Origin: a virus
Lineage: Duplodnaviria; Heunggongvirae; Uroviricota; Caudoviricetes
Length of the DNA: 64,000 nucleotides
Virus record (IMG/VR): IMGVR_UViG_2617270980_000003
Reading direction: 5' to 3' (one strand)
Below are positions 25,640 to 60,130 of the stretch, piece by piece. A model generated the notes under the pieces. It had not been told where the DNA came from, made no database searches, and saw nothing but the letters and a program-made list of their open reading frames with translations. Every line of letters starts with the position of its first letter. Positions within the stretch are counted from its first letter, which is position 1. Made by a program: the position numbers and the translations under genes.

Positions 25640-25813
25640 CTAGATTAAATCAATCTTGATATCATAGCTTTCAAGACCAGTCATTTTTTCCCGTGCAGTA
25701 AACTGGATACTGGTAACTTCTTTCCCGGTCTTTTTCTTAAGCTCAATGATTTTTTTTGTTATATATTCAGAAATATCTGCTTCTGTTTTTGTTTTTAACT
25801 CTTCAATGTTCAT
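25640..25813 (-). CDS. GnsA/GnsB-family small protein
   Basis: From ATG 25813: MNIEELKTKTEADISEYITKKIIELKKKTGKEVTSIQFTAREKMTGLESYDIKIDLI, strongly resembles E. coli GnsA/GnsB (57 aa) as recalled. Confidence 0.7.
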   Translation of the reverse strand: MNIEELKTKTEADISEYITKKIIELKKKTGKEVTSIQFTAREKMTGLESYDIKIDLI

Positions 25814-25985
25814 CATTTCCTCTTTTAGTCTGTTATGACTTTCCTGGTACACAGTAGTGTCAATTATATGGAGCAAACGTATAAAAGATAAGATGAAACA
25901 TCGCAATAATCAACATACGACGGTCTAAATTTCACACAAACAGATAAAGATGATTATCATTTATTATCAATGCATTAGAATCAAA

Positions 25986-26216
25986 TCAATTCAAGAGTCT
26001 CATTGCTGCTTCCAGAATTTCTTCTGAAGTTACATGTCGATCCGCTGCTACATAAATGACTTTATGATCTCCGGTCAGAGATGGAAACCCTGCAGCCATT
26101 ACAGTGAGGTGTGTTGTTTCGCCATTTGGATATTCACGCATGATGGTGTTAACTCCGGTCATCACTGGCACTACCATTGCTGGTTCAGAGTTAAAAAAAA
26201 CTATTATTTTTTTCAT
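25986..26216 (-). CDS. YmcE/YnfN-like small protein (76 aa from ATG 26216)
   Basis: Neighbour of the gns-like gene, as ymcE-gnsA / ynfN-gnsB pairs in E. coli; sequence identity not confirmed. Confidence 0.4.
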   Translation of the reverse strand: MKKIIVFFNSEPAMVVPVMTGVNTIMREYPNGETTHLTVMAAGFPSLTGDHKVIYVAADRHVTSEEILEAAMRLLN

Positions 26217-26266
26217 AATGTTACCGTAATATGTGAGTATCCATCGACTAGACACTAAGCAAAAAA

Positions 26267-26290
26267 GCTCCCGAAGGGGCTTTTTTTTAA
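26267..26290. terminator. Bidirectional terminator-like hairpin near the P2-like prophage right junction
   Basis: AAAAAA-GCTCC-cgaa-GGGGC-TTTTTTTT. Confidence 0.5.
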
Positions 26291-26356
26291 GATTTAACCA
26301 AATGAAATAAAAGGATTTATTTCAGGTCATGTCCACTTACCGACCACATCTATTCA

Positions 26357-26381
26357 AAAGCCCCGCAATGCGGGGCTTTTA
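26357..26381 (-). terminator. Rho-independent terminator immediately downstream of ogr
   Basis: GCCCCGC-aat-GCGGGGC 7-bp stem flanked by A-run and T-run. Confidence 0.6.
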
Positions 26382-26630
26382 TCATATAGTCAAACTTAAC
26401 TGATCGCGTCCATAGTGCGAAGCGGGAAAGACACCTGCGGGAATAAAGTCAGGCGCTAATTTATCGCGCCGCTCACGCTTGGTGACAATTTTTTCAACAC
26501 TGTTAAGCGTTGTGAATGACAAGCCGCATTCCATATTCTGGCACTGATGGTATTGGCGAATCGTTACTTCACTAAGAGGCTTACTGGTGCGAGTGCGGGC
26601 CGTAGCGCCGCAGTGTGGGCATTTGAACAT
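26382..26630 (-). CDS. ogr: Ogr/Delta-family zinc-finger late-gene transcription activator
   Basis: MFKCPHCGA...RYHQCQNMECGLSF with four-Cys pattern, as in P2 Ogr (recalled); located at prophage end next to D. Confidence 0.85.
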   Translation of the reverse strand: MFKCPHCGATARTRTSKPLSEVTIRQYHQCQNMECGLSFTTLNSVEKIVTKRERRDKLAPDFIPAGVFPASHYGRDQLSLTI

Positions 26631-26668
26631 AATGGTGACTCCCCTGGGGAGTTGAACTCATCACCATT

Positions 26669-27916
26669 CTATTCAGTTTCTGCGATCCAGTCAGATATTT
26701 TTGCTTCAAAGTTAAGCTGTGTTGTGAATCCATTACTATCAACATCATGCTGTACCTTGCTGATTATCCAGTCCTGGGCGTCAATATCAGCTTTAAAACC
26801 GGTTACCGTTGCGTGCATTTCCGGGTACAACTCCGCGCGCCCGCGCGCCAGGGTGATCGAAAACTCCGCCGCGCCGCGCTGTAACTGCTGCCACTTTGCC
26901 GCCGCTGCGCGCCTGGCGGCTTCTTCGTTCTGGAAGGTTTTACGCATAATAAAAACGTTACCTTCAGCGCCTTCAATATAGTCACCTTCCCTGCTGCTGC
27001 TCTTATCCGCTTTTTTAGTTGTGGCACGACGACGGACACTGACCTTTTTCTTTTTCCCGTAATTCAGATCAAGCCAGTACGCGCGGACGCCGGTATAAGC
27101 GTCACGATCAGCAACGCGGAAGCGGTGCCGGTCGCCACTGCTGCGCGTGATGGCAATCGACGGAATAGCCTTCCCTGATGCTGTGAAACCACCACCCGGC
27201 ACGATAAATAACAGACTGCCATTTTTTACCGTGGCGATGGCCCCTAACATTTCCGCCATTCTGGTCAGAAATGACATATCGCTTTCCTGAGTCTGATCGG
27301 CGTGGTCAATTTCCACATCCATCAACAGATCGCTGATTTGCGGCGTCAGGTCATACCGTTTTGCGATAGCGGACACAACCCGCTCCACAGTCACATCATG
27401 CCAGGAGACTTCACGCTTCACGTTAAACTCTTCTCTGAAATCTGCACTCCTGGCGGTCACCGTGATACGGTCTGGCGGCCCGTCATGCGCGACTTCATCA
27501 ACCGTGTACACGCCCTTATAAACCAGCGCTTCACCCATCCACCCCAGCCAGAAAGACAACTCAGCACCGCGCAGCGGAAGGGCAACGCCTCCATCAGTAT
27601 CATCCAGCTCTAATGTCAGCTGATCGGCGTCAAATCCCCTGTTGTCCGTCAGGCTGATGGATATCACGCGATCTGATAATTCTGTTAACACCTTTCCGCC
27701 CTGCCGGACGCTGAATGCCGGTATTTTTAACGCCTCCGTCAGGATGTCATCGACACCGCCAGCCGCGCCCGAAATCATACTGCTGATCACTGAAACACTC
27801 ATACACCCTCCCGTTTTGCTGAATAATTCCACGCGGGCGCGCGTGGGAGAATTCGTTTTAGTTGTCAGAGAGATAGCACAACCAGAAAGGCGTGAAGCTG
27901 TTACGTCAATCAGCAA
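26669..27916 (-). CDS. D: P2 gpD-like tail protein; likely true start ATG 27802 (377 aa)
   Basis: ...ISLTDNRG.DADQLTLELDDTDGG...DRDAYTG...FSITLARGRAELYPE... parallels P2 D as recalled; track start 27916 is TTG. Confidence 0.85.
   Translation of the reverse strand: MLIDVTASRLSGCAISLTTKTNSPTRARVELFSKTGGCMSVSVISSMISGAAGGVDDILTEALKIPAFSVRQGGKVLTELSDRVISISLTDNRGFDADQLTLELDDTDGGVALPLRGAELSFWLGWMGEALVYKGVYTVDEVAHDGPPDRITVTARSADFREEFNVKREVSWHDVTVERVVSAIAKRYDLTPQISDLLMDVEIDHADQTQESDMSFLTRMAEMLGAIATVKNGSLLFIVPGGGFTASGKAIPSIAITRSSGDRHRFRVADRDAYTGVRAYWLDLNYGKKKKVSVRRRATTKKADKSSSREGDYIEGAEGNVFIMRKTFQNEEAARRAAAAKWQQLQRGAAEFSITLARGRAELYPEMHATVTGFKADIDAQDWIISKVQHDVDSNGFTTQLNFEAKISDWIAETE
27863..27880. promoter_or_regulatory. 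Ogr-type late-promoter activator site (TGT-N12-ACA) between divergent D and FI
   Basis: TGTcagagagatagcACA; ~70-85 bp from both D ATG (27802) and FI ATG (27944/27956); embedded in a ~30-bp element repeated at 45024-45056. Confidence 0.6.
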
Positions 27917-27943
27917 TCATGGTGGCGAACTCAACAAAACGTA

Positions 27944-29146
27944 ATGGTGACAAACATGTCTGAGACACGTTTTCACGGTGCTCGCACCAAAGAAGAAACC
28001 GACATCACGAAGGTAATTAACGACATTGACTCCAGCGTCATTGGCGTAATTGTCATCGCTGATGACGCGGACGAAGACGCATTTCCACTCAACACCCCAA
28101 CGCTTATCACGCGGCCTCAGTCGATGCTGGGCAAGGCGGGGAAAACAGGGACGCTGTACAAAACGCTGAAAGCCATTTCAGACCAGGCAAGCGCGAAAGT
28201 CATTGTTGTTCGTGTCGCCGCAGCCAAGCCGCTGGAAGGCGACGCAGAAGCGGAAACGCAAGTGCAACTGATTATCGGTGGCTCTGATGCTGAAGGTAAC
28301 TACACCGGCATGTATGCGCTTCTGACTGCCGAACAGAAGACACAGTATCGACCGCGCATCCTGGCGGTTCCTGAATACGACACCGAAGAAGTGACGGCAC
28401 AGCTTTGTGTGATCGCCAAACAGCTTCGCGCCTATGTTTATGCAAGCTGTAACGGCTGCAAGACGCTGGCGGAAGCCCTCGCGTATCGTAAAACCTTCGC
28501 ATCACGCGAACTCACGCTGATCTGGCCTGACTACATCGCATATAACCAGGTGTCCGGGGAAAATGAAGTATTCCCGGCCCCGGCCTATGCGGTAGGGCTG
28601 CGCGCGTTTATTGATAACCAGTACGGCTGGCACCGCTCGCTATCTAACATTGCCGTCAGCAATGCGCTTGGCATTTCGAAGGATGTTTTCTGGGCGCTTC
28701 AGGCTGAAGACAGTGACGCACAGACGCTGAACAACGCCGAAATCACCACCATCATCAAGCGTAATGGCTTCCGTTTCTGGGGTAACCGCACCACAGACAC
28801 CAATGAATTTGTGTTTGAGGTGTACACCCGCACGGCGCAAATCCTGGCGGACACCATCGCAGAGGCGCAATTTGAAACCATTGACGGGCCACTCACCCCG
28901 ACCAACGTGAAAGACGTGGTGAGCGCGATTAACAAGAAACTCAGTGCACTGGTCACAGCTGGCAAGTTGCTTGGCGCGGAAGCCTGGTTTGACATCGTGG
29001 ACAACGGAACCGCAAACCTGATTCAGGGCAAAGTGGCGATCCGCTACAAGTACACGCCGGTGCCACCGATGGAAGATTTGACGCTGATCCAGACGTTCAC
29101 CGATGAATATTTTGAAGGCGCGTTTTCGTCTCTGGGGAGTAACTAA
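27944..29146 (+). CDS. FI: Tail sheath protein (P2 FI-like)
   Basis: 400 aa; ...GFRFWGNRT...YTRTAQ..ADT..EA... and C-terminal ...YTPVPP.E.LTL... match P2 FI as recalled. Confidence 0.9.
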   Translation: MVTNMSETRFHGARTKEETDITKVINDIDSSVIGVIVIADDADEDAFPLNTPTLITRPQSMLGKAGKTGTLYKTLKAISDQASAKVIVVRVAAAKPLEGDAEAETQVQLIIGGSDAEGNYTGMYALLTAEQKTQYRPRILAVPEYDTEEVTAQLCVIAKQLRAYVYASCNGCKTLAEALAYRKTFASRELTLIWPDYIAYNQVSGENEVFPAPAYAVGLRAFIDNQYGWHRSLSNIAVSNALGISKDVFWALQAEDSDAQTLNNAEITTIIKRNGFRFWGNRTTDTNEFVFEVYTRTAQILADTIAEAQFETIDGPLTPTNVKDVVSAINKKLSALVTAGKLLGAEAWFDIVDNGTANLIQGKVAIRYKYTPVPPMEDLTLIQTFTDEYFEGAFSSLGSN

Positions 29147-29659
29147 ATGGCGATTCCACCAAAACTACGGCTGTTCACCTGCTTTGTGAACAGCGTGAAC
29201 AATATCGGCAAAGTGACATCTGTCACGCTGCCAAAACTGACCCGCAAAACTGACGACTATCAGGGCGGCGGGATGATTGGCTCTGTTGCTGTCGATCTCG
29301 GACTGGATAGCGGCGCGCTTGATGCCACGATGGTTGTAGGCGGCCTGGTTCAGGCTCTGCTACTGGAATACGGCGGCGATCTGGACGGAACGCTTATCCG
29401 ATTCACCGGGGAATATTACACATCCGGCGAGAGTCAGATCGTTGACGTGGAAATGCGCGGCAAATTCACCGAAATCGACGGCGGCGAAAGCAAGCAGGGC
29501 GAAGATACGTCCGTAACCTACGCCATTAAAAACACGTACTACAAGCTGTCAATTGACGATAAGCCCATCTGGGAAATTGACCTGCTGAACTTCGTGTACA
29601 AACGCAACGACGAAAATATTTACCCTTCCCGCGTAATGTCTGCGCTGGGCATGGGATAA
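29147..29659 (+). CDS. FII: Tail tube protein (P2 FII-like)
   Basis: 170 aa, directly after sheath gene. Confidence 0.85.
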   Translation: MAIPPKLRLFTCFVNSVNNIGKVTSVTLPKLTRKTDDYQGGGMIGSVAVDLGLDSGALDATMVVGGLVQALLLEYGGDLDGTLIRFTGEYYTSGESQIVDVEMRGKFTEIDGGESKQGEDTSVTYAIKNTYYKLSIDDKPIWEIDLLNFVYKRNDENIYPSRVMSALGMG

Positions 29660-29712
29660 CTAACAACCACTACAGGCGCGGCATCGGGTGATGCCGCCCG
29701 GAGATTAAAACG

Positions 29713-30024
29713 ATGACCGAAGAAAACACCGTAACACTGACACGCCCGATTAAACGCGACGGCAACGAAATCAAAACCATCACGATCACTGACGAAGTGA
29801 AACAGGCTGGTACCCTGCGCGGCCTTCGCCTGGTGAACGTGATGAATATGGACGTGGACAGCATCAGCACCCTGCTAACCCGCTGCACTTCCCCGCGCCT
29901 GAAGCTCAAAGAAATCAGCGAAATGGCAACATCTGACTTTGTTGAACTTTGCGAGGCGCTCACGCCTTTTTTAGCGCCGAAGGAGCCTGGCACGAAGAAC
30001 GAGACGGAGACGGAGAGCGAGTAA
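29713..30024 (+). CDS. E: Tail assembly chaperone E
   Basis: 103 aa, between tube and tape measure genes. Confidence 0.8.
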   Translation: MTEENTVTLTRPIKRDGNEIKTITITDEVKQAGTLRGLRLVNVMNMDVDSISTLLTRCTSPRLKLKEISEMATSDFVELCEALTPFLAPKEPGTKNETETESE

Positions 30025-30185
30025 ACGCGCCCCACTTTGACCTGATCGATGATCTGGTTGCTGATATAGCAGTTATTTTCAACTGGCCGCCCTCAGAGGT
30101 TTTCACTATGTCCCTGAGTGAGGTGATAGCCTGGCGTGAACGGGCGGCTATCCGAAGCGGAAACAGTGAAGATGAAAGACCTTAA
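29713..30185 (+). CDS. E+E' fusion product via -1 programmed frameshift at T_TTT_TTA (29967-29973)
   Basis: Slippery heptamer TTTTTTA in E frame; the -1 frame stays open to 30185 (...FFSAEGAWHEERDG...), overlapping the T start. Confidence 0.6.
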
Positions 30186-33144
30186 TATCCGTGTCGCCTT
30201 CAGTGCGATTGATAAGTTAACCCGCCCGGTAAATGCCGCCCGCAACTCAGTGGGCGGCTTATCTGAATCCCTCAAAAAAACACAATCGTCTATCAAAGAT
30301 CTGGAAACGCAATCCCAGGCATTCAACCGCCTGAATGAGCGCGTTAAAAAGACATCCCAGCAACTCACCACAACACAGCGAGCCTTTGACGGCCTGAATA
30401 AAGCACAGAAAAACGGCACGGTACTAACCGACGCACAGCGCGAGCGCATGACGGCACTGGCAGCGAAACTTGATCGCCTGAATGCCAGCCGGTCACAGGA
30501 GACAGCAAAACTCCAGCAAGCGTCCCAGGCGCTGCGCGCGCACGGCGTTTCACTGGCGGGCGGCGATCGCACAATTCAAAGCGCTATCAGACGCACTGAG
30601 CAATACAACCAGACGCTTGAGAGAGAACGGCGACAACTTGCCGCAGTCACCAACGCGCGCGCCCGTTATGACCGTCTGAGCGCCACAGCGGGCAAATTGC
30701 GCACCGGCGGCGCGGTGGCGATTGGCGCAAGCGCGGGAGCGGGCTACGCTGCCGGACGCTTCCTGGCCCCTGCCGTGGGTTTTGATGAGGAAATGTCGCG
30801 CGTAGGCGCACTGACCCGCCTGGATAAAGGCGATGAACAGTTTGCCGCCCTGCGCGCCCAGGCCAAAAAACTTGGCGCTGAAACCGCATTTACCACGCGA
30901 GACGCCGCCAGCGGGCAAGCCTTCCTGGCAATGGCTGGCTTTACACCACAGTCAATTCAGGCTGCGCTGCCTGGCGTTCTGAATATGGCGCTAGCCGGTG
31001 GCATGGATCTGGGTGAGTCCGCTGATATCGGTTCAAACATCCTGACGCAATTCAAGCTGTCATCAGATCAGATGGACAGGGTTGGCGATACGCTAACAGC
31101 CGCATTTACCCGTACCAATACCGACCTGCGCGCCCTGGGCGACACAATGAAATACGCGGGGCCAGTGGCGGCTAATCTGGGTATTAGCCTGGAAGAGGCA
31201 TCCGCTATGGCGGGGATGCTTGCCAATAACGGTCTGCGCGGCAGTGACGCGGGTACAGCATTACGTTCCAGTCTATCCCGCCTTGCTTCACCACCAAAAG
31301 CCGCGGCTGATGCTCTGAAAGAGCTAGGCGTGTCGGTTGCCGACGCCAACGGGAAAATGCGCCCGATGGAAACGGTACTGTTAGACCTTTTCAAAGCCAC
31401 ACAGAAATACGGGCAGGTTGATCAGGTATCTTTCTTCAAAAATATCGCCGGTGAAGAGGCCTTTGTGGGCCTCCAGACGCTGGTACAGGCGGCAGGCTCG
31501 GGAGAACTACAAAAGCTCACAAAAGAACTTCAGGGCGCTGCCGGTGAATCCGCTACCGTCGCAAAAAAAATGGCGGACAACCTGGGCGGGGATCTAAAAG
31601 AACTCGATAGCGCCTGGGAAGCATTCCGTATCCAGATTGAAGAACTGGCGGACGGCGCACTGCGAAAACTCACCCAGGCACTGACCGGCACGATCGGCGT
31701 GATGACTGAATGGGCGAATAAGAATCCGCAGCTATCAAAAACCCTTCTGGCTGTTGGCGGCAGTGTGCTGGCCCTCACCGCCGGGATTGGCGCAACGTCC
31801 CTGGCTATTGGCTTACTTCTGGGGCCACTGGCAAAACTTCAACTCGGCTTTGCCCTGCTAACCAGCGGGAGCGGGCTGGGTGGCGCGGTGACACTGTTCA
31901 GCCGCCTGGCTGGCGTTATTTCCGGGCCGCTTGGCGGCATCCGTGGCTGGGGTGTCGTCTTCAGTAGAATGACCGGCAACGCCGGGAAACTGGCTGGCGC
32001 GCTTGCCCCATTGAGAGGACTGCTTGCCGCCGCGTTTATCTCACCAGGTGCCGCCCTGGGCGGAATTGTAAAAGGGCTTGGTAGTCTCCTGCTTCGCCTG
32101 ACCGGCATACCTGCAATCATGGGGATCGCTAGCTCGGCCCTCTCGATGCTCGGCGGCGCGCTGTCATTGCTGTTAAGCCCGATCGGGCTGATTGGCGCGG
32201 CCTTCATTGCCACAGGGTTGCTTATCTGGCGATTCTGGGAGCCGATCAAAGCCTTCTTTGCGGGCTTCTTTGCCGGTGTAATGCAGGCGCTTACGCCGTT
32301 CCGTGATGCCTTCGCCGGACTGGCCCCCGTCTTTGATGTGATCTCAAATGCCGTTTCTCAGTTGTGGCAGTGGTTCAGCAACCTGCTTTCACCAATGACG
32401 ACCAGCAAAGAGACATTGGATAAATGCGCAAGCGCTGGGGAGACGTTCGGCAAAGTGTTTGGCCTGGCAATTCAGGGGCTAATGTTACCTCTGACTGGAT
32501 TGGCCAAAATGGTTGGCTGGATACTTGAAAAGCTGGGGCTGATTCCGTCCGGGATTGAAGCGGCGAAAGCAAAAGCGGAGAAAGTGCAGAAGGAACTCAC
32601 ACCGGCAGGATTGGCTATGCTGCAGGACAAGGTTGGCACGCTCACTGTCGATATGAAAGCAGTAACCGCGCCACCTATCGCCCCACCATCACCAGTGATT
32701 GCTGTTGATACGGGAACTCAACGGCGGTTACAGAAAATTGCGGACAATACCGGCGGGATGCTGGATGCAACCAAAAAGCGGATCGGCCCTGGCGATATCG
32801 TGTTTAAGAATCTGCCCCGCGCATTAGCCGTCCACGGCGCATGGCAGGAAGCACAATCACCCCCAGGCGCAAACCTGGCCCAACTTAGCGCGCGCCCGGT
32901 TATCGCGGCGGCATCAGCACCGATTAAACCGGCAGTTGAAGTACAGGCTATTAGCGGGCAATCCAGTAAACAAGCCAGCAAACCGGCGCAAAACACCGCT
33001 CCTGATGAAATACATATTCACATTCATATGCACGGCGATCTCAGCAACGACGCCCGCGACATTGCACGGATGGTGACTGATGCAGTTGGGGCAGAACTTA
33101 ACAAGCGTTCCCGCTCTGGTAGCAGTTTCAGAGACAAAGATTAG
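30136..33144 (+). CDS. T: Tail tape measure protein (P2 gpT-like); track start is GTG, first ATG at 30172
   Basis: 1002 aa, coiled-coil N-terminus, Gly/Ala/Leu-rich hydrophobic middle region. Confidence 0.85.
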   Translation: MNGRLSEAETVKMKDLNIRVAFSAIDKLTRPVNAARNSVGGLSESLKKTQSSIKDLETQSQAFNRLNERVKKTSQQLTTTQRAFDGLNKAQKNGTVLTDAQRERMTALAAKLDRLNASRSQETAKLQQASQALRAHGVSLAGGDRTIQSAIRRTEQYNQTLERERRQLAAVTNARARYDRLSATAGKLRTGGAVAIGASAGAGYAAGRFLAPAVGFDEEMSRVGALTRLDKGDEQFAALRAQAKKLGAETAFTTRDAASGQAFLAMAGFTPQSIQAALPGVLNMALAGGMDLGESADIGSNILTQFKLSSDQMDRVGDTLTAAFTRTNTDLRALGDTMKYAGPVAANLGISLEEASAMAGMLANNGLRGSDAGTALRSSLSRLASPPKAAADALKELGVSVADANGKMRPMETVLLDLFKATQKYGQVDQVSFFKNIAGEEAFVGLQTLVQAAGSGELQKLTKELQGAAGESATVAKKMADNLGGDLKELDSAWEAFRIQIEELADGALRKLTQALTGTIGVMTEWANKNPQLSKTLLAVGGSVLALTAGIGATSLAIGLLLGPLAKLQLGFALLTSGSGLGGAVTLFSRLAGVISGPLGGIRGWGVVFSRMTGNAGKLAGALAPLRGLLAAAFISPGAALGGIVKGLGSLLLRLTGIPAIMGIASSALSMLGGALSLLLSPIGLIGAAFIATGLLIWRFWEPIKAFFAGFFAGVMQALTPFRDAFAGLAPVFDVISNAVSQLWQWFSNLLSPMTTSKETLDKCASAGETFGKVFGLAIQGLMLPLTGLAKMVGWILEKLGLIPSGIEAAKAKAEKVQKELTPAGLAMLQDKVGTLTVDMKAVTAPPIAPPSPVIAVDTGTQRRLQKIADNTGGMLDATKKRIGPGDIVFKNLPRALAVHGAWQEAQSPPGANLAQLSARPVIAAASAPIKPAVEVQAISGQSSKQASKPAQNTAPDEIHIHIHMHGDLSNDARDIARMVTDAVGAELNKRSRSGSSFRDKD

Positions 33145-33156
33145 GAGAGCAAAACA

Positions 33157-33645
33157 ATGATGATGGTTTACGGAATGTTCGTCTTTGAGTTAAAAACCAT
33201 TCCCCACCAACAATTACAGCAGTCAAAGACATGGCGGCATGTAAAGAACGAGCGCATAAACCGATCGGCAAAGTGGCAATACATTGGTGCAGGTGACGAT
33301 CAGATTACCTTATCCGGTGTTTTGTACCCATCAGTGACCGGCGGTAAGGTGAGTCTAACTGTGCTCGATACACAGGCCTACACCGGACGCCCCTGGCCTC
33401 TTATCAGCGGCACCGGGCGGATCTATGGCATGTATTCGATAACGCAGCTTCAGACCACCGATACTGAATTTGACCAGTATGGGGAGCCGAAGAAAATAGA
33501 ATTTACGATCACGTTTCAAAGGCAGGATGAAGACCTGCGCGAAAGCCTCCAGTCTTCATCAGTGAGTGATTTACTCGGCAACCTGCAAAACACAGCCAAC
33601 TCAGCGCTGAATAATATCAGCGCCGCCGCATCCAGTCTGTTTTAA
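33157..33645 (+). CDS. U: Tail protein U (P2 gpU-like)
   Basis: 162 aa, MMMVYGMFVFE..., follows tape measure gene. Confidence 0.75.
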   Translation: MMMVYGMFVFELKTIPHQQLQQSKTWRHVKNERINRSAKWQYIGAGDDQITLSGVLYPSVTGGKVSLTVLDTQAYTGRPWPLISGTGRIYGMYSITQLQTTDTEFDQYGEPKKIEFTITFQRQDEDLRESLQSSSVSDLLGNLQNTANSALNNISAAASSLF

Positions 33646-33660
33646 ACAAGTAAAAATATA

Positions 33661-33688
33661 CCCCTCGGATTGGTTTTCACCGAGGGGA
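33661..33688. terminator. Hairpin between U and the acyltransferase moron
   Basis: CCCCTCGG-12 nt-CCGAGGGG; T-rich run only on the minus-strand side. Confidence 0.35.
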
Positions 33689-33744
33689 GCAACAAGAGAC
33701 CTAGCTCTAATTTTGTTCAATCATGTGTAAATTGTGCAGACTAA

Positions 33745-34782
33745 ATGATTGTCCTTAGAATTTTTGTAAGTAAAATAACCACAATTTTTCCTAATTGCGC
33801 GACTAGACTCTATATGAAAAACCTTTCCTCAATTGATTACGCAAAACTTTTCTTTGCGTTTTGTATCATTTTTATACACACAGACATTTTAGGCGGCAAC
33901 AGTAATTATATAGGATATGTTACTTGCCAGGGACTGCTAAGGATTGCAGTGCCATTCTTTTTCATTACTAGTGGATATTTTTATTTTTCTGTAATGCAAA
34001 AAAATAAAATTAAAAAATGGTTTTCTCACAATATAAAAACCTATGCTCTATGGACGCTTCTTTACTTACCAATAATACTAGGATTAGTTGGTTTTATTAG
34101 GGCGGGTAAGCCTTTAGCGACAGACCTTACATATTTATCTCTAAATGCAGTATTTGGATTTTGGCACTTATGGTTTTTCCCTGCCCTGATAGTATCGGCA
34201 TTATTAACATTACTTTTAGCTAAGCTAAAAGATCGCACATTAATAATCATATGCTGCATACTTTATACGTGCGGCACGTTACTTCAATATCGCGCAAATT
34301 ATTCCATTGACATAAATCGTGACATATGGTCTCTCGCTACAGTTTTCTTTTCCAGAAACGGTCTTTTCATGGGTTTTCCATTGTTTATGCTTGGATACCT
34401 TATAAATAAAAATAACATAAGAAATAACAATACATATTTACTCATTGGTTCCATTATTTTGGTCATCATTGAGGCATCCGTAAATTATTCATATGGCACA
34501 TATACCTTTGATATGCTTTTTTCACTTCCATTCGCTGGTGTTTTTGTTTTTTTAAAAGTTCTAGATATCACCCTGAAAACAAAAAACACCTTCACAATTC
34601 GCGAGCACTCAAAAAACATATATCTTATACAAATCTATGCCATTCAGTTTGCAAAACAATTTGCATCTGATTGGTTAGTCATAACAACAATCGCATGCAC
34701 TATTTGCATTAGCTATTCAATAGCTAATATCATTAAAGATAATTTAATTGCAAACTTTAGACTAAAAAGCCTATCAAATTAA
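33745..34782 (+). CDS. Acyltransferase family 3 (OafA/Oac-like) integral membrane protein; probable start ATG 33814
   Basis: Strongly hydrophobic multi-span protein; ...IDYAKLFFAFCIIFIHTD... N-terminal signature; region looks AT-rich by eye; sits between U and G. Confidence 0.7.
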   Translation: MIVLRIFVSKITTIFPNCATRLYMKNLSSIDYAKLFFAFCIIFIHTDILGGNSNYIGYVTCQGLLRIAVPFFFITSGYFYFSVMQKNKIKKWFSHNIKTYALWTLLYLPIILGLVGFIRAGKPLATDLTYLSLNAVFGFWHLWFFPALIVSALLTLLLAKLKDRTLIIICCILYTCGTLLQYRANYSIDINRDIWSLATVFFSRNGLFMGFPLFMLGYLINKNNIRNNNTYLLIGSIILVIIEASVNYSYGTYTFDMLFSLPFAGVFVFLKVLDITLKTKNTFTIREHSKNIYLIQIYAIQFAKQFASDWLVITTIACTICISYSIANIIKDNLIANFRLKSLSN

Positions 34783-35234
34783 TCCTCAGGGATATCAGGC
34801 CAGATAATGTCGGGGGCTTTTGATGTGTCAATACGCATTAATAGCACCCGATATTTCTTCCACTTCGCAAGCTGAATAACTTCATCATCGGTTGAAATAC
34901 CAGCTTCAATCGCATCCTGCCGCCACGCAATTTCTGTACCTGCATTTTCAGCCAAGTCTTTTTTTTGCTGTATAGCTAACGCAATTAACTGATCGGCTGT
35001 AGGCTCTGATACATCAACCCATACAGGCTGACCGGAAGCGTCGCCTCCTCTACCTTTTCCTTCTGGCGGCCTTCCTGTGTATTTCTGATAAATATCAGAT
35101 TCAACTTCAACAATGTCATCAGGCCATGTATTCGTTTTTTCATAGTCTGATTTCATTGACTCAAAAAAGAATGAGTTATTCTTAGCACTGAAATATATAT
35201 TACTAAACATAATTAACACCCCACACCAAAGCAA
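34779..35234 (-). CDS. Tail fibre assembly protein (P2 gpG / Tfa-like)
   Basis: ORF immediately downstream of tail fibre gene; stop shares the TTAA with the convergent acyltransferase stop. Confidence 0.7.
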   Translation of the reverse strand: MLWCGVLIMFSNIYFSAKNNSFFFESMKSDYEKTNTWPDDIVEVESDIYQKYTGRPPEGKGRGGDASGQPVWVDVSEPTADQLIALAIQQKKDLAENAGTEIAWRQDAIEAGISTDDEVIQLAKWKKYRVLLMRIDTSKAPDIIWPDIPED

Positions 35235-36499
35235 AAGAATGGTTTTGACGCAGCGACGCCTGTTCTTTCTAATAAAGAAACCTGCATATCTCGATCGCTT
35301 AATCTTTTAACTCCAGCAATCGCCGACGCTGCTGCATCACCAGCCACATTGCATGGCAAAATACCAAAACAGCGAACAGGCCAACCAATAGGAAAAGGGG
35401 CTGAAGCCCAGCCGCCACCATCAGTATTCCCCCAACACCACTGTAAAATTATTCCATTTGGAAAACGCACCCAACCGGCATCAGCCATTACCTGAGTAAA
35501 GTCTGTATTTTTCACATACCCCTGAATGCCCCAATCATTCTGAAAAATCAATTTTTTCACATCAGCATTCATTGTGAATGCATTAACTCGACGATCGGAG
35601 ATCTCCCCTGATGGAGATAAAGCAAAATCAATATAGTTCGCGCCGTTTCCCATTATGCCGCAAATAATCGACGACATAATTGCTCCACCAAATGAAAAAT
35701 CCAAACCACATGCACTTCCATTTTCACTGCTTTTATTTTTGATATGAATACCTGAAAAACCACTCTCTTTTTCCACGATCATTTCGTGTCCGACTGCTGA
35801 GATAATACCTTCAACAATCACATCACCAGTAACCCTCCCACCAGAAGCAGGTAACGCATCGGCTGCTAATTGAACTGTTTTATCCAAACCAAGGTTTTTG
35901 ATAGCCTCTCCAACCAACCCGGCCTTAATCAATTCTTTAAGAGCATTTTCAATCAACAGGTACTGGCTATGCGGATTAGCGGTGTCAACGTGCTTTTTTA
36001 TCGCGTTGTCTGTATAGGTTTTCACCTCAATTACAGCACTATCAACATACTGCCGGGTTGCCAGCACAACGGACGGATCAACTTTCAGGGTAACGGCATC
36101 AGTGCTCGATACCGTGAGCATCATCCTTATAACCTGCGTACGGCCTGATCCTTCCTCTGTTGTGGCCTTGTACGTCTCCGGGCAGTTAGCCACAGCAATC
36201 AAGATACCATCAGCATCAAAGAGTCCTATTTCACGAATCCACCACCCGCCAACGGATTCAGGAATAATCTGTTCCGCAATAATCTGGCTGTCGTTTTTAT
36301 CGTCCACTGACAGCGAGTTAAGCTGGGCGCGGCGCACCTCGTTAACCAGCGCTGTCTGTGCCTGGCTTGGTGTTGGTGATTTGCCGCCGCCGTCGCCAAC
36401 TGCGAGCGAGGTGATTTCTAACTTCTCACCCAGCGCAGCCATATTTGATAATTTTGCCGCCCCCTGAGCAGTCAGCAGGGCAAAGAATTTAGCCGCCAT
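35213..36499 (-). CDS. H: Tail fibre protein (P2 gpH-like)
   Basis: N-terminus ...AVGDGGG...GGWWIREIGLFDADGILIAVAN... matches conserved P2 H N-terminal domain as recalled. Confidence 0.85.
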   Translation of the reverse strand: MAAKFFALLTAQGAAKLSNMAALGEKLEITSLAVGDGGGKSPTPSQAQTALVNEVRRAQLNSLSVDDKNDSQIIAEQIIPESVGGWWIREIGLFDADGILIAVANCPETYKATTEEGSGRTQVIRMMLTVSSTDAVTLKVDPSVVLATRQYVDSAVIEVKTYTDNAIKKHVDTANPHSQYLLIENALKELIKAGLVGEAIKNLGLDKTVQLAADALPASGGRVTGDVIVEGIISAVGHEMIVEKESGFSGIHIKNKSSENGSACGLDFSFGGAIMSSIICGIMGNGANYIDFALSPSGEISDRRVNAFTMNADVKKLIFQNDWGIQGYVKNTDFTQVMADAGWVRFPNGIILQWCWGNTDGGGWASAPFPIGWPVRCFGILPCNVAGDAAASAIAGVKRLSDRDMQVSLLERTGVAASKPFFCFGVGC

Positions 36500-37103
36500 T
36501 TGTTACCTCTAACGTATCAATAATATGAATTGCGCCCCCGGGAAAATACCCGCCACTGACTTCTACGGCTTCAGGCATATAGGGGTAAATAGTCATCACG
36601 TCACCGCCATAACACCCGGCGTGGGCGTATACCTCTCCCTTCGCCTGCATACTGATTGCAAGGCCGGTCAGGTGGCGTGAGCATGGTTTTGCATCAGCGA
36701 TCAGGCGCTCAAGCTCGAGATAGGTTTCTTCTGTAATCCCTGAGTCAGAAACACCAATTTCAAGTTGAAATGTTCCCCGCTCGCCTCCGTTCTGCCACCA
36801 TTCAACGACCTTTATCAGGAAGCCGAACGGCTCAACGACACGGCGCAGCGCCGCAATAGTTCCCTTTTGCCGGTGTACCAGCCAGGCGGATTTAATCACC
36901 TGTCGCTTTGTCTGTTCTGACCAGCCTTTATCCCAGCGATCAACCGATAACGCCCAGGCCAGATAAGGCAGTAAAGCAACCGGGCATTCATCAGGGTTCC
37001 ACAGCGTTTTCAGGTCTACGGGCAAATCACTCACGCGCCAGGTTGCGGCCTCGGCACTGCGCATAAAATCACTGGCTGAAGGTGGCAACAGACTGTTATT
37101 CAT
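36489..37103 (-). CDS. I: Baseplate/tail protein I (P2 gpI-like)
   Basis: 204 aa between J and H. Confidence 0.8.
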   Translation of the reverse strand: MNNSLLPPSASDFMRSAEAATWRVSDLPVDLKTLWNPDECPVALLPYLAWALSVDRWDKGWSEQTKRQVIKSAWLVHRQKGTIAALRRVVEPFGFLIKVVEWWQNGGERGTFQLEIGVSDSGITEETYLELERLIADAKPCSRHLTGLAISMQAKGEVYAHAGCYGGDVMTIYPYMPEAVEVSGGYFPGGAIHIIDTLEVTNGG

Positions 37104-38344: not shown

Positions 38345-38922
38345 GCCGTCCCCTTAGTCCTGCTATTGCCACTCTCAACACCACCATGATCATGATCGTC
38401 AGCCTGGACGCCGTTTGACTTCAGTGCGCCGCCGCTGTGAGTTACATCGCCGGTCATCTTTCCGCCCTCAGTGAAATCAAAGGTTTTCGCTTTCAGATGT
38501 TTTGTGCACTCCACCTCTGGCGCATCGAGCGTGATTTTTGTTGCTGCCTGGATGGTGGCGGTTTTCATTCCGCCGGCACTCAGTGCGCCCGCCTTCGCGT
38601 CATAGCTAAATTCAGCCCCATCAGGCGCGGTGATCATCATCTGCATCAGGCTACTGGCGGGGGCGTCGTTTTCGTTGCTGTAGAGGCTGCCCAGCACAAC
38701 GGCTGTTTCAGGATTGCCGCCCAGACATCCCAGCAAAACCTGTTCGCCCAGCGACGGCGCACACCAGAATTTGAAAGCACCGGCGCGCGTTGTCGTCCAG
38801 CGAAGCCATGTTGTCTGCAAATCATCGCTCTGCACCCGTACACTTTTACCGTCTTTCGATATGTCAAAAACCACGCCCACACGGAGCACGTTAGACAGGA
38901 GGCGCAACAGTTCGGCACTCAT
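38341..38922 (-). CDS. V: Baseplate spike/assembly protein V
   Basis: 193 aa with Gly-rich C-terminus; P2-order position. Confidence 0.8.
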   Translation of the reverse strand: MSAELLRLLSNVLRVGVVFDISKDGKSVRVQSDDLQTTWLRWTTTRAGAFKFWCAPSLGEQVLLGCLGGNPETAVVLGSLYSNENDAPASSLMQMMITAPDGAEFSYDAKAGALSAGGMKTATIQAATKITLDAPEVECTKHLKAKTFDFTEGGKMTGDVTHSGGALKSNGVQADDHDHGGVESGNSRTKGTA

Positions 38923-44120: not shown

Positions 44121-44960
44121 TTAGTAATCGGCTTGTTCGACGCCGGTGTTACCGCCCTGTGCGGGCTGGCGGCTGAAAGTGCTGGCGTCCTGCTTTGCCA
44201 GTGTGTTTTTCAGGTCGGTCAGTTCGCTGGTCAACTTCTGAATTTCCTTTGCGTCGTCAGCGCGCTGGCTTCTCAGTTCCACCACCTGATCGATAAGGCC
44301 CGCCTGAGACGTGGCGACACCTTCAACCACTTCGCGCACCTGGCTGAATTGCTCACTGTCGGTTTTATGGTTTTTGGTCAGAATTTCCTTCATGCGGCTA
44401 AACCACTTGCTGCCTTCATCACTTCGCTGCTCAGCCAGTTCGATCACTTCCGCTTCAATGGCGTCAGAGAACATCGCGCTTTCGCCCTGCTGTTTATTGA
44501 ATGCCTGCACCTGCTGGCGCTGCTGGGCCGCAAACTTCAGGCGATCAGTACCCAGACTTGCCGGGGTATCAGTCATCGCCATGCCGACAATGTAGGCCTT
44601 ACCGTTCAGTGCAAATTGCGGGTGCAATTCAATACTGGAATAGACTTTCTTACCGGCATCTGTCAGCGCTTTCATTTGCGCTGACGGTTCAATTTCCGCA
44701 TATAACGCAGTGCGCCCTGCTAGCGGACCTTCAGTAATGTCCTCAGCGCTAAGCGCCGTAACATCCCCCATCGCACCAAAATCACTGCCTGGATAAGGCG
44801 AGAGATAATGTTCAACATTCACGCGAGCGCCGTAAACGTCCTGGCTATAGCTCGCGGCAGCATCACGGAGGTGATCTGGTCGAATTTCGCGACCGTCAAC
44901 GGTGGCACCGGAGACGGCAACGCGGAATTTCTTCCGGGTAGGTTTGCTGGTTTCACTCAT
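44121..44960 (-). CDS. O: Capsid scaffolding protein (P2 gpO-like)
   Basis: 279 aa; ...VYSSIELHPQFALNGKAYIVGMAMTDTPASLGTDRL... parallels P2 O as recalled. Confidence 0.85.
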   Translation of the reverse strand: MSETSKPTRKKFRVAVSGATVDGREIRPDHLRDAAASYSQDVYGARVNVEHYLSPYPGSDFGAMGDVTALSAEDITEGPLAGRTALYAEIEPSAQMKALTDAGKKVYSSIELHPQFALNGKAYIVGMAMTDTPASLGTDRLKFAAQQRQQVQAFNKQQGESAMFSDAIEAEVIELAEQRSDEGSKWFSRMKEILTKNHKTDSEQFSQVREVVEGVATSQAGLIDQVVELRSQRADDAKEIQKLTSELTDLKNTLAKQDASTFSRQPAQGGNTGVEQADY

Positions 44961-45033
44961 GTTCTTTCCTGCCGGTTGGTTTCTGTTTTTCCATGATGTC
45001 AGTTGCTAAGTCATTGTCTCAACGCGTTTTAGT

Positions 45034-45051
45034 TGTCAGAGACGGCCCACA
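45034..45051. promoter_or_regulatory. Ogr-type late-promoter activator site (TGT-N12-ACA) between divergent O and P
   Basis: TGTcagagacggcccACA, roughly equidistant (~75-82 bp) from O ATG 44960 and P ATG 45117. Confidence 0.6.
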
Positions 45052-45116
45052 ACCCAAACAGCGGGAACGGCCCACGCGCGCGGGTTAATCTCTCCATCGA
45101 AACGAGAGGACACCGC

Positions 45117-48307: not shown

Positions 48308-49657
48308 ATGCGATTGACCGCTCCTGTTAAAGCGTTCTCAGATGGTTTTAGTACAGCAGATGACATATTTGGACGTAAAAAACTTCATGACATCATCATG
48401 CGGGTAGCAACAAATGCCCCAGATAAAAGTCTTGTACTTGCGCTCAATGATGAATGGGGTAACGGAAAAACCTCATTTGTAAAAATGATGTCATCAGAAA
48501 TAAATAAAAACCATGCTGACAACTTTGACGTTATTTACTTTGACGCTTTTGAAAATGACTATCAATCAGACCCATTTGTAGCCTTAACATCAAAAATTTA
48601 TTCACTCATAAAAAAAGAAGATGGAAAGCTTAAAAACCTCGGGAAAGAGTTATTATCCATTGGTAAAAAACTAGGCGCGTCATTCGCACTTAATGGTGCA
48701 AAATTTGCCGTAAGCACTTTCACAAGTGGATTAGTCTCAGGTAACGCACTGGAGAAAGCAAGTGATGCCATCAGTGACTCTCTCACATCACCTATTGAAG
48801 AGTACATTGAAGAAAAAATAAAAACGAGCGAGAGTGAGTTAGCAACAATTGAGCAATTTAGAGCATTGCTGACCAAGATTCACACTGAGTGTGGGAAAAA
48901 AATAATATTTATAATTGATGAGCTAGACAGGTCGCGACCTGATTTTTCCCTTGACTTGCTAGAGAAAATAAAACATATATTTTCAGTGGAAGGTTTTGTT
49001 TTCTTACTAGTAGTTAACCGTGAGCAGTTTGAAAAAAGTATAGAGTGTAGATATGGGAGCATAAATACAAGATTATATTTAAATAAATTTATTCATTATT
49101 GGTTTACTCTTCCTAAAAAAAGTATGCTCTCAGTAGGCTGCCGAGCAGGCTATGAACGTTCAACGTTAACACAATATCTCCTGTCGTTAGATCAAGGGAA
49201 TGACATACTGATTCGGAATGGTTCTCTCGTAAAAACCCTCGCGTATCTTCTAGAAATGAATAACTGTTCACTGCGAGAGGCTGAGCGTTGCTATTCAACA
49301 TTCGCAATAATGAACGACCCCAGCGAAGTAAATTCCTACCGACATGAAATATTTCATGTTGCCATCGCACTAGTTGCTTTCTTGAAAATATTCAACCAAT
49401 CCTTACTCATGGAAATATTAAACAAAAAACTGACAGAAGATGAGATATTTAAACGATTATCAATTCCTGTAAACCTTGTCGATGTTTCTGAGATTTATTA
49501 TATTGCAATATTGTTAAAATACCACTTAGCCACCGATGAAGAACTACGTTCCTCTGATATGCTCACTGAGTACGCATTCATGGCTGTAATACCTGGACAA
49601 CGAGTCAAATGGTTTGAAATGATGTATGAGAAGATCGAAGGCTTTGATATTAACTGA
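48308..49657 (+). CDS. KAP-family P-loop NTPase (cargo gene in P2 old/tin hotspot)
   Basis: 449 aa; Walker A NDEWGNGKTSF, Walker B IIFIIDELDRSRPD, hydrophobic stretch between them; AT-rich by eye. Confidence 0.75.
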   Translation: MRLTAPVKAFSDGFSTADDIFGRKKLHDIIMRVATNAPDKSLVLALNDEWGNGKTSFVKMMSSEINKNHADNFDVIYFDAFENDYQSDPFVALTSKIYSLIKKEDGKLKNLGKELLSIGKKLGASFALNGAKFAVSTFTSGLVSGNALEKASDAISDSLTSPIEEYIEEKIKTSESELATIEQFRALLTKIHTECGKKIIFIIDELDRSRPDFSLDLLEKIKHIFSVEGFVFLLVVNREQFEKSIECRYGSINTRLYLNKFIHYWFTLPKKSMLSVGCRAGYERSTLTQYLLSLDQGNDILIRNGSLVKTLAYLLEMNNCSLREAERCYSTFAIMNDPSEVNSYRHEIFHVAIALVAFLKIFNQSLLMEILNKKLTEDEIFKRLSIPVNLVDVSEIYYIAILLKYHLATDEELRSSDMLTEYAFMAVIPGQRVKWFEMMYEKIEGFDIN

Positions 49658-49718
49658 TAAGCCATATTATCTTTTATCTCTATTTTGAAGCAATAAAACT
49701 AGAAGTAAACTCTAAAAA

Positions 49719-49740
49719 GCCGCCAATCCCGGCGGTCTTT
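49719..49740 (+). terminator. Rho-independent terminator after the KAP NTPase gene
   Basis: CCGCC-aatccc-GGCGG hairpin followed by TCTTT. Confidence 0.45.
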
Positions 49741-49936
49741 GAAGGGCATTACAATTTCGTGGCGCTCAGTTATACATGGATTCTTAGCAAGGACCAAGCC
49801 GCGACACACTACATTGTAGCTCCCCGCTATGTGATTTGAAGTTGCTGGCAATCAAAAAATGCTCCCTTTAGTACCACTAATTTTGTAGAGTATGGTTAAC
49901 TTTGAAAAGTTGTAATACGTCAACTAAGGAACAGCG

Positions 49937-51088
49937 ATGTCATCAGAAAAAACAATAGAACGTTTCGTTGCAGCAGATGTTAGCGGTGCAATCTGGTTAC
50001 GATTAAAACGATTAATGAGTGCGCAGCTCTGTAAGAAAATAATAGAAAATAATCATCCGTCATTGCAAGAGGATGTATTGATTAAAAAATCCATTGGAAT
50101 GTCCTCCGCAATACGAAGTGCAATCGGATATTGGGAGACTGAAAATGGCGGACTCAATTCAAAAATTTTATCCAGATATTATGCATTATTACAGATAAGC
50201 TTAGCTGAACAAATATCATCAGGGGATCCTAACGACGATTTAAAAAATGTTCAAAAGCATACGGTTTCAGGTCATGGGCTATTCACACAATCTGTTGAAA
50301 ATGAAACATTCCCAGACAATATAAAAATAGGCTGTCTTAAAAGTGGACATTTTTATTCATATGCAAAGCATATAGGAATTGATATCAAACAGTATGCAAC
50401 AGAAAGACGTCCAAAAAAAGATGAAGATTTAGACCCATCACGCACCTATTCTTTAACTGATTTATTAAAACGAATTCCAGAATTAAGACCGCTTTTACAA
50501 GAAACTTTCGGTGAAGATCCACTTTCATTCCAAATTGGACAAGCAAGTAGAAACATGCTCTTAAGATCAAGGAATCAGTCACTCGGTGGCCTATCGCGTC
50601 CTAAACCAGAGTTCTCAGGTTTTACATATGCCGCAATTTATCCCAAAGGTAGCGATGTAACAGCAGAAGAGCTTAATTCTTACAACATTGGAATAAAAAA
50701 CATTGAAATTGAGTCAGAAGAAAACCTCACAAAATATGACCAACCATATTTTGTAGGAGAAGTCCATCACCCTGAAGATGAGCTATGGTGGGATTATGTC
50801 ACGACACACAAATCTGGTTATTGTGGAACGAGTGTAATTGTCCCATTTTGGGGAACTCAAGATCCCTTTGTATTACACTTAGTCGTATTATATACATTAA
50901 GCATTATAGTCAGGTATCTCCCTGACACTTGGTATGAGATTGAGCATGGCAAACTTGATTATATTAATTCCCTTTTGGAAAATTATTTAGCTATTTTTGA
51001 TAGTGTACTGCCTAAACTTGCGGTTGAAAGATTAACGAAAGTTCATTTGGTAGTAACAGCACCCGATAGCATGAATTCCCCTATCTAA
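49937..51088 (+). CDS. Hypothetical protein (second cargo gene in hotspot), no recognisable domain
   Basis: 383-aa ORF, AT-rich, own upstream region; C-terminal hydrophobic segment PFVLHLVVLYTLSIIVRYL. Confidence 0.6.
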   Translation: MSSEKTIERFVAADVSGAIWLRLKRLMSAQLCKKIIENNHPSLQEDVLIKKSIGMSSAIRSAIGYWETENGGLNSKILSRYYALLQISLAEQISSGDPNDDLKNVQKHTVSGHGLFTQSVENETFPDNIKIGCLKSGHFYSYAKHIGIDIKQYATERRPKKDEDLDPSRTYSLTDLLKRIPELRPLLQETFGEDPLSFQIGQASRNMLLRSRNQSLGGLSRPKPEFSGFTYAAIYPKGSDVTAEELNSYNIGIKNIEIESEENLTKYDQPYFVGEVHHPEDELWWDYVTTHKSGYCGTSVIVPFWGTQDPFVLHLVVLYTLSIIVRYLPDTWYEIEHGKLDYINSLLENYLAIFDSVLPKLAVERLTKVHLVVTAPDSMNSPI

Positions 51089-58222: not shown

Positions 58223-58526
58223 TTTATAGCGGCTTTCAGTGGCTTTATGTGGTGCTCAAACCCGCATTACACCGCTGAAAGCCCGTATATCAAAGGGCTA
58301 CCAACGCCCCCGATGGAGCCTTCATTTTCACTTTCTTAAATCTAACGATAGACGGCTAACATTTAAGTATTGTGAAATATTATCAAATGTAATCATCATT
58401 GATTTACAAAAGATACATTTTGCCCCGAAAGGATTCCTGTCAGAAACATCAAAAGATGATGTTCTATACTGAGAACCATGGCAACACGGGCATCTAAAGT
58501 GAATATGGTTTGTAATATTTTCTACC

Positions 58527-58742
58527 TCAAAGTGCCACAACATGAACAGCCGCGGGGCCTTTAGGTCCGTTCTCAATACCAAATTCGACTTCCTGATTCT
58601 CAGTTAACGTTTTGAAATCGTTGCTCTGAATAGCTGAGAAATGGACAAACACATCTTTGCTACCATCTTTCGGCGTGATGAAACCAAAACCTTTTTCAGG
58701 GTTAAACCATTTCACTAAACCAGTCATTTTGTTAGACATCAT
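58527..58742 (-). CDS. cspI: Cold-shock protein, CspA family (CspI-like prophage moron)
   Basis: [38 protein letters not shown]... with RNP1/RNP2 motifs; sits downstream of Rz as cspI does in Qin. Confidence 0.75.

Positions 58743-59102: not shown

Positions 59103-60130
<1,028 letters not shown>

Follow-up and report, generated by a model that had tools for sequence, protein, structure and literature searches.

The inverted tail block of this P2-like prophage of E. coli is the normal, fixed state of a known group of P2 relatives (P88, phiT5282H, SEN4/5 and 3LV2017). In the stretch of DNA analysed (64,000 nucleotides, hereafter the window), ORF layout and Pfam matches place ogr, D and the G…O genes on the minus strand, while the plus strand carries FI-FII-E-T-U and a gene for an acyltransferase. 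The annotated P2 record, which served as the canonical gene order, confirms that FI…U is inverted relative to P2, as an earlier sequence-only reading had noted. The element lies inside a Qin-type lambdoid prophage and carries the late set of P2-like phages (Peduoviridae; Q, P, O, N, M, L, X, lysis, R, S, V, W, J, I, H, G, FI, FII, E, T, U and D) plus ogr, A, cox, C and int. Pfam identified ogr, D, FI, FII, E, T, U, G, H, A and int; the remaining genes were assigned by colinearity with the annotated prophage of E. coli ES1. Very probably, the prophage is a member of a known Peduoviridae clade in whose ancestor the FI-FII-E/E'-T-U block and its upstream activator site inverted once and became fixed, with one dyad predicted to serve both FI-U and D-ogr. 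The layout is already known in the sense that it is visible in public annotated genomes; a full-text literature search found no explicit description of the inversion.

The block starts across a short gap from D (26669–27802, minus strand; PF05954), which encodes the baseplate hub/late control protein D and is divergent from FI. The sequence GGGAGGG precedes the D start codon at 27802, and the PGAP start of D in ES1 is 24 nt further inside the gene. The next gene on the minus strand, 38 bp beyond the end of D, is ogr (26382–26630), coding for the late-gene activator with an Ogr/Delta zinc finger (PF04606, E = 4e-19). The plus-strand genes begin with the tail sheath gene FI (27956 or 27944 to 29146; PF04984, PF17482 and PF22671), whose product is 74% identical to gpFI of phiT5282H, and the tail tube gene FII (29147–29659; PF04985, E = 1e-43). 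These are followed by E (29713–30024; PF10109), the homologue of which is annotated in ES1 as a 'GpE family phage tail protein'. A predicted frameshift would extend E into E' (29713–30185), whose reading frame ends at 30185. The tape measure gene T (30136–33144; PF10145, E = 2e-56) and the tail protein gene U (33157–33645; PF06995, E = 2e-39) complete the block. Facing it on the minus strand are G (34779–35234; PF02413), for the tail fibre assembly protein, and the tail fibre gene H (35213–36499; PF12571), the final large gene in the long O…G late array.

The same order (ogr, D minus; FI, FII, E, T, U plus; G, H, I, J minus) was found in all 94 related loci examined, 84 of which are IMG/VR loci. 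It is annotated, from ogr and D through FI…U to H, I and J, in P88 (Xuanwuvirus), phiT5282H (Novemvirus), SEN5 (Senquatrovirus), 3LV2017 (Reginaelenavirus, as is Kp4860-2), ST16-OXA48phi5.4 (Reipivirus) and KSP20, a Serratia phage. Partial records (ST16-OXA48phi5.4, KSP20, Kp4860-2, 520873 and Chuche) agree, and in tblastn searches 90 of 90 related loci had ogr, D, H, I and J on one strand and FI, FII, T and U on the other, or the portion of this order that each holds; only P2 differed. Four further IMG/VR contigs with the exact dyad have the order too, one of them with FI, D and ogr 100% identical, as do 30EVA2 and the ES1 prophage, which resides in a complete chromosome and is 97.7% identical. 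In the phage collection, 39 records were colinear over D, the gap and FI. By contrast, P2, Fels-2, ENT90 and phiCTX have the co-oriented canonical order. The relatives came from protein and distant-DNA searches, as megablast of the whole region against phage records gave no match. Thus, the arrangement is not the lineage-specific rearrangement of this element that had been proposed: P88, phiT5282H, SEN5, 3LV2017/Kp4860-2, ST16-OXA48phi5.4, KSP20 and 84 of 84 IMG/VR loci share it, and P88 and its kin are reference P2-like phages for which this orientation is standard. P2 is not the sole template for judging P2-like prophages, given a large enterobacterial clade with the sheath-to-U block inverted as standard, and calling an inverted tail block in such prophages a rearrangement or a misassembly is wrong. 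The correction has little importance beyond annotation.

The D/FI intergenic region (27803–27955) is a predicted bidirectional late promoter pair arranged around one activator dyad, as judged from its sequence, an alignment of 10 relatives and an ungapped profile of 77 distinct relatives. The D start codon (27802) and the FI start codon (27944 or 27956) delimit a gap of 141 or 153 bp. Pattern searches recovered a sole exact TGT-N12-ACA match in it (TGTCAGAGAGATAGCACA, 27863–27880, centre 27871.5), in agreement with the single site first reported there; the extended match (27855–27885) scores 27.2 bits with a position weight matrix. On the D side is a -10-like hexamer, AATTAT (27823–27828, minus strand), preceded by TG as in extended -10 elements, with a predicted start near 27816. 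On the FI side, AATCAT (27915–27920, plus strand) has a predicted start near 27927, within a conserved GAACTCA. Both hexamers are weak matches (4/6), lie at mirror distances of 43.5–48.5 bp from the dyad centre and occupy positions that stand out as conserved across the 77 distinct gaps. This geometry predicts start sites about 55.5 bp from the dyad on either side. Part of the conservation among relatives is due to common ancestry. The profile also revealed a conserved GC-rich palindromic element on the D side (CCACGCGGGCGCGCGTGG, 27829–27848), for which the FI side has no equivalent and which could mean another mode of control; CCCACGCGCGCGGG on the P side of the O/P gap (45071–45084) resembles it.

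The bare TGT-N12-ACA pattern is unenriched across the window (13 found, 15 expected) and so on its own proves nothing. A weight matrix derived from homologous sites in relatives, however, retrieved just two strong sites from the whole window, the D/FI site and one of 21.9 bits at 45026–45056 (dyad 45034–45051) in the gap between O (minus strand) and P (plus strand), with the next best match scoring 3.6. The two sites have CGTTTTAGTTGTCAGAGA…CACAACC in common. Of 77 related loci, 76 have an O/P-equivalent site upstream of P. In each of the 13 genomes where both sites are readable, D/FI and O/P carry the same variant of the right half-site (ACA or AGA), which indirectly favours a dependence of both D/FI promoters on Ogr. 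The matrix scan of the window detected no third late-promoter site (pV), and S and V overlap in this prophage; SEN5 has a pV site, as P88 possibly does.

This architecture is consistent with one Ogr-type dyad that would activate a divergent start some 55 bp to each side, one for FI-U and the other for D and, through it, ogr. The earlier proposal of an activator site serving both D and FI stands as far as placement goes, since one dyad is positioned to serve both. A shared activator is plausible; we infer Ogr binding and activation, the Ogr dependence of the D promoter and the two start sites from sequence geometry and conservation. One activator site for divergent late promoters has a precedent in the P2 record, which lists a lone 'activator binding site; pO, pP promoters' at 3057–3087, with divergent starts at 3016 and 3127, 55–56 bp either side. 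Quite possibly, and we advance this tentatively, the inversion in the clade rewired the late control of P2 so that the O/P and D/FI Ogr sites, each acting in both directions, drive all late genes without a pV, placing D-ogr under an Ogr-dependent promoter. If true, ogr would be under direct positive feedback; in P2 such feedback depends solely on transcription reading through the long F operon. P2 has the same genes, an Ogr-type activator and a dyad about 83 bp upstream of FI, but its FI-FII-E-T-U-D-ogr genes run in the direction of V…G, and its D gene lacks a dedicated promoter. A pV site, separate from these, is present in P2, whereas the prophage has none (S and V overlap and no third site scores).

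The dyad could instead be the old pF site serving FI alone; D and ogr would then have a promoter that does not need Ogr, and the GC-rich element would reflect some other control. The TG-extended -10 on the D side can work without an activator, the conserved GC-rich element is confined to that side and ogr has its own promoter in P2. Furthermore, the 3' end of D contains a sigma-70-like site (CTGACT-17-TAGAAT, 26694–26666, minus strand) upstream of ogr that is a candidate promoter for this gene. Yet the D-side hexamer sits at the exact mirror distance (43.5–48.5 bp), with a spacing kept in 77 distinct sequences, the pO/pP pair of P2 provides a precedent with the same geometry, and P2 transcribes D, which codes for a structural protein, as part of the late pF operon. 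We regard an FI-only dyad as unlikely. A modest point of interest is that the clade is a natural setting in which to ask whether a single Ogr site can serve a divergent pair of late promoters at another locus as well, and how the split into D-ogr and FI-U operons was accommodated.

The inverted phages form one clade in neighbour-joining trees of both FI and D, which fits a single, old and fixed inversion. These were simple trees rooted on phiCTX by assumption. Both proteins of the prophage group with the clade and not with P2, Fels-2 or ENT90, at 57–87% identity versus 44–52% to the phages with canonical order. From such comparisons we infer the direction of evolutionary change: the FI-FII-E/E'-T-U block and its upstream activator site would have flipped once in the ancestor of the clade and then become fixed, severing D-ogr from the F operon and leaving the old pF dyad between FI and D. 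The distance from dyad to FI start codon is nearly equal here (84.5 bp) and at pF in P2 (83 bp), so the dyad most likely travelled with FI. The reverse history, in which divergent D and FI are ancestral and the co-orientation of P2 is derived, draws on the fact that the trees are in principle unrooted and that two sister clades, each with one state, are equally parsimonious. It appears improbable, because the distant Pseudomonas phage phiCTX is likewise co-oriented and U and D abut gaplessly in P2 (22791), as expected of an undisturbed operon. Moreover, the N-terminal 20–40 residues of D cannot be aligned among clade members or with P2, as expected near a breakpoint.

An old inversion in the clade ancestor also accounts for the data better than a recent rearrangement confined to the prophage and its immediate lineage. 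Close matches are indeed few: megablast against 5,426 complete E. coli genomes returned six that match at least 64% of the region, one of them at 95% identity or more, and the same kind of search against phage records returned none. Against a recent event, which we consider very improbable, the order is common to phages whose FI proteins are merely 57–74% identical, which span at least five ICTV genera and which infect Escherichia, Enterobacter, Klebsiella, Salmonella and Serratia. Misassembly of this genome is scarcely credible, having nothing in its favour beyond the difference from P2 itself, for both junctions and the same acyltransferase recur at 97.7% identity in the complete ES1 chromosome, the order is repeated in four IMG/VR contigs with the identical dyad, in isolated phage genomes and in 80 further IMG/VR loci, and the D/FI gap has a conserved promoter-like architecture. 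Both junctions recur in independent assemblies, and the earlier view that the arrangement is genuine and functional holds.

Equally remote is a programmed invertible segment of the Gin/Cin/Hin type that flips the tail operon. In P88 and 30EVA2 a serine invertase gene does adjoin the U end of the block, where it serves tail-fibre switching, but ORF and Pfam analyses of the window found no invertase gene at either junction and 94 of 94 loci have the one orientation. A search for recombinase sites at the junctions, suggested at the outset, yielded inverted-repeat pairs at chance level only (best pair spanning the junctions, 24 nt at 71%). We also rejected inversion of the block by an aberrant tail-fibre invertase of the kind present in P88, 30EVA2 and Fels-2. 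The P88 invertase gene is itself uninverted, so its own sites cannot have made the block inversion.

P88 and phiT5282H are among the closest known layouts, with the late order P, Q / O…H, G / inverted U, T, E, FII, FI / D (and ogr in phiT5282H) and, as here, one dyad in each of the D/FI and O/P gaps. Their FI proteins are 68–74% and their D proteins about 73% identical to those of the prophage, with DNA identity too low for a megablast match, and AGA replaces ACA in their right half-site. The ES1 prophage (NZ_CM184353) is much closer, sharing 97.7% nucleotide identity across 26300–36600, acyltransferase and both junctions included, and an identical D/FI gap. The two elements differ in integration, the ES1 prophage lying between fieF and cpxP and the one described here inside the Qin-type prophage.

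At the other end of the block, the plus-strand genes run head-on towards the end of the long O…G array. A GC-rich hairpin (CCCCTCGG-N11-CCGAGGGG, 33661–33687) with a T-run on the minus strand lies just past the U stop codon. Equivalent hairpins follow U in 30EVA2, P88, phiT5282H and SEN5. The hairpin is a candidate shared terminator of the convergent operons, and the likely one at this end. Between U and G is a gene for an Acyl_transf_3 membrane acyltransferase (33814–34782, plus strand; PF01757, E = 6e-19), a low-GC cargo gene (moron). We placed its start at 33814 after the PGAP call in ES1; the longest ORF begins at 33745. The two intervals of the GC scan that cover it have GC contents of 0.44 and 0.35, the lowest near the operon and below the 0.53–0.58 around them, and a sigma-70-like site (TTGTCC-16-TAAAAT, 33749–33776) lies near its start. 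A tblastn search of 50,697 phage records with the acyltransferase gave no match, a PADLOC scan was empty and an NCBIfam scan returned VanT membrane domains only, far below threshold. Direct reading of the sequence confirmed the reported convergence on G, with the acyltransferase and G stop codons overlapping in the TTAA at 34779–34782 (TAA on each strand). Cargo gathers at this convergent junction, which holds the acyltransferase here, an invertase and alternative tail-fibre cassette in P88 and 30EVA2, and no cargo in phiT5282H.

ORF listing and Pfam scans confirmed the gene map that had been drawn from the sequence alone. The genes ogr (26382–26630) and D (26669–27802) are on the minus strand and are followed on the plus strand by FI (27956, or 27944, to 29146), FII, E (with its E' frame), T and U (33157–33645), and by a gene encoding an Acyl_transf_3 acyltransferase (33814–34782). 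G (34779–35234) and the genes H, I, J, W, V and onward to O (44121–44960) are again on the minus strand, and P and Q are on the plus strand. D and FI diverge across a gap of 141–153 bp, depending on the choice of FI start, and the acyltransferase and G genes meet at a TTAA (34779–34782) that provides a TAA stop for each on opposite strands. Because the annotated P2 record has V…G and FI-FII-E-T-U-D-ogr co-oriented, as the sequence-only reading had stated, the FI–U block is inverted relative to P2.

The inverted order is shared by known relatives of the prophage. The FI protein is closest to that of phiT5282H (74%), followed by KSP20, the Klebsiella phages 3LV2017 and ST16-OXA48phi5.4, and P88 (68–71%), and then SEN5 (57%). 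As in the window, the annotated records of these phages have U, T, E, FII and FI on one strand, in a block that converges on G/H and, at its opposite end, diverges from D and the ogr gene behind D. These phages are placed in Xuanwuvirus, Novemvirus, Senquatrovirus, Reginaelenavirus and Reipivirus (ICTV genera), and 39 phage records have a colinear DNA match over D, the gap and FI. A prophage of E. coli ES1 is 97.7% identical, with the same junctions and acyltransferase, and one of E. coli 30EVA2 is 81% identical. Furthermore, tblastn with nine window proteins recovered the arrangement ogr- D- FI+ FII+ T+ U+ H- I- J-, or whatever portion of it each locus contained, in 90 of 90 related loci (10 from GenBank phages/E. 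coli and 80 from IMG/VR that were among the matches listed in an FI-based scan); only P2 was co-oriented. Four further IMG/VR contigs carrying the exact dyad sequence of the D/FI gap also have the inverted order, and the FI, D and ogr of one of them are 100% identical to the window's. The IMG/VR genome 2603880148 has two contigs (L096 and L179) that hold terminase P and the FI/D/ogr set, each 100% identical to the window's; this genome, which was not among the matches listed in the FI-based scan, is probably the window's strain or a near-identical one.

Genomes with the co-oriented order include P2, Fels-2, ENT90 and phiCTX, a distant phage of Pseudomonas. The inverted phages grouped as one clade, sister to P2/Fels-2/ENT90, in neighbour-joining trees of both FI and D, which were rooted on phiCTX by assumption. 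The simplest reading of these trees is one old inversion, fixed since. Both the defining gene order and the protein grouping place the element in this clade, and it is a P88/phiT5282H-type member of the Peduoviridae, probably working like P2. The arrangement is already known, being visible in public annotated genomes that include ICTV-classified phages; our literature search found no paper discussing it. Alignment of D fails over its N-terminal 20–40 codons, both between clade members and against P2 (aligned stretches start at residue 8, 22, 28 or 41), which is consistent with an adjoining old inversion breakpoint.

The block had been proposed to be a functional, lineage-specific rearrangement and not an artefact. 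The first part of this proposal needs revision: reference P2-like phages (P88, phiT5282H, SEN5 and others) share the orientation, and a rearrangement private to this prophage is excluded or very unlikely given that the same order is standard clade-wide. The second part stands, as only one orientation was ever seen and misassembly of the block is excluded or very unlikely. A flip-flop switch is likewise excluded or very unlikely, with a single orientation, no inverted repeats found in the window that pair the two block junctions, and no invertase gene at either junction in the window.

The D/FI gap contains, as first noted, one exact TGT-N12-ACA dyad (27863–27880; centre, 27871.5). An AATCAT hexamer on the FI side (27915–27920, plus strand) and an AATTAT hexamer preceded by TG on the D side (27828–27823, minus strand) are both 43.5–48.5 bp from the dyad centre. 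This spacing predicts start sites ~55.5 bp to either side, near 27927 (FI) and 27816 (D), which would give short leaders, each carrying a ribosome-binding sequence (GGGAGGG for D). Similarly, the P2 record has a single "activator binding site; pO, pP promoters" at 3057–3087, 55–56 bp from each of the divergent starts (3016 and 3127), and the P2 pV and pF sites lie at ~55 bp and 57–59 bp, respectively. When 77 distinct D/FI gaps were aligned ungapped on the dyad, the dyad (TTTTTGTTGTC…A[C/G]AAC) and both hexamers were conserved against poorly conserved surroundings, as were the TG preceding the D-side hexamer, the GAACTCA located at the predicted FI start and, towards D, a GC-rich element. From these sequences we infer Ogr binding and start sites across the clade. 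Because the dyad lies 84.5 bp from the FI ATG, in line with the clade (80.5–88.5 bp) and with P2 pF (83 bp), it is most likely the former pF site, which would have travelled with the inverted block. The D/FI gap is predicted to be a second bidirectional Ogr control region, a prediction that may be undescribed; if it holds, the late genes of the prophage would run from only two such regions.

A weight matrix built from the D/FI sites of relatives, including the window's own but not its O/P site, picked out just two sites across the 64-kb window, one at D/FI (27.2 bits) and one in the O/P gap (45026–45056; 21.9 bits); the next-best score was 3.6. Both sites have CGTTTTAGTTGTCAGAGA…CACAACC in common, and 76 of 77 related loci have an equivalent upstream of P. 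Depending on the genome, the right half-site reads ACA or AGA, and the D/FI and O/P variants agree in all 13 genomes (not all of them independent) readable at both. Both sites have ACA in the window, 30EVA2, 3LV2017 and SEN5 and AGA in P88, phiT5282H and seven IMG/VR contigs. Such agreement would be expected if the Ogr of a given phage recognises its two sites. The 64-kb scan found no pV-type site in the window, where S and V overlap (38919–38922). Like the window, phiT5282H has two activator-type sites only, whereas SEN5 keeps a third in the S–V gap (L004, 9255–9285), like P2 pV, and P88 has a possible third (18.4 bits) inside the lysis region (L001, 18636–18666). GC-rich elements also lie ~30–40 bp from the dyad centre in both gaps: CCACGCGGGCGCGCGTGG (27829–27848) towards D and CCCACGCGCGCGGG (45071–45084) towards P. 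The D-side element is conserved in relatives, and a P-side one was also seen in 3LV2017.

At the convergent end, the U stop is followed by a GC-rich hairpin (33661–33668 paired with 33680–33687) whose T-run is on the minus strand, in the same sense as the O…G transcript. A hairpin equivalent to it is present after U in 30EVA2, P88, phiT5282H and SEN5. The acyltransferase gene, with a sigma-70-like site upstream, sits between this hairpin and the G stop in the two lowest-GC windows near the operon (0.44 and 0.35 versus 0.53–0.58). Relatives carry different cargo or none at this junction, which is the counterpart of the place, between G and pF, that fun(Z) occupies in P2; E. coli ES1 has the same acyltransferase gene at this junction. 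No relative of the acyltransferase was detected with tblastn among 50,697 phage records, and its only NCBIfam similarity, far below threshold, was to the VanT membrane domain.

The P2-like prophage (~26270–58310) lies within a Qin-type lambdoid prophage, with junctions at 26264–26277 and 58303–58316. In E. coli NCTC9088 the flanks at 25642–26277 (gnsB side) and 58303–60140 (rzpQ/rrrQ side) adjoin each other without a break, and the insertion falls within a small hairpin, GCTCCCGAAGGAGC, near ynfR/ynfN. The near-identical ES1 prophage is instead between fieF and cpxP. Between Q/cos and the replication gene A, where P2 has old/tin, are two low-GC cargo genes (48308–51088, plus strand). One encodes a KAP-family P-loop NTPase that matches PDC-S20, a candidate defence family in PADLOC (E = 1e-74); the product of the other is YaaC-like (PF14175) and had no match in PADLOC. 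Together, they may form an anti-phage defence pair.
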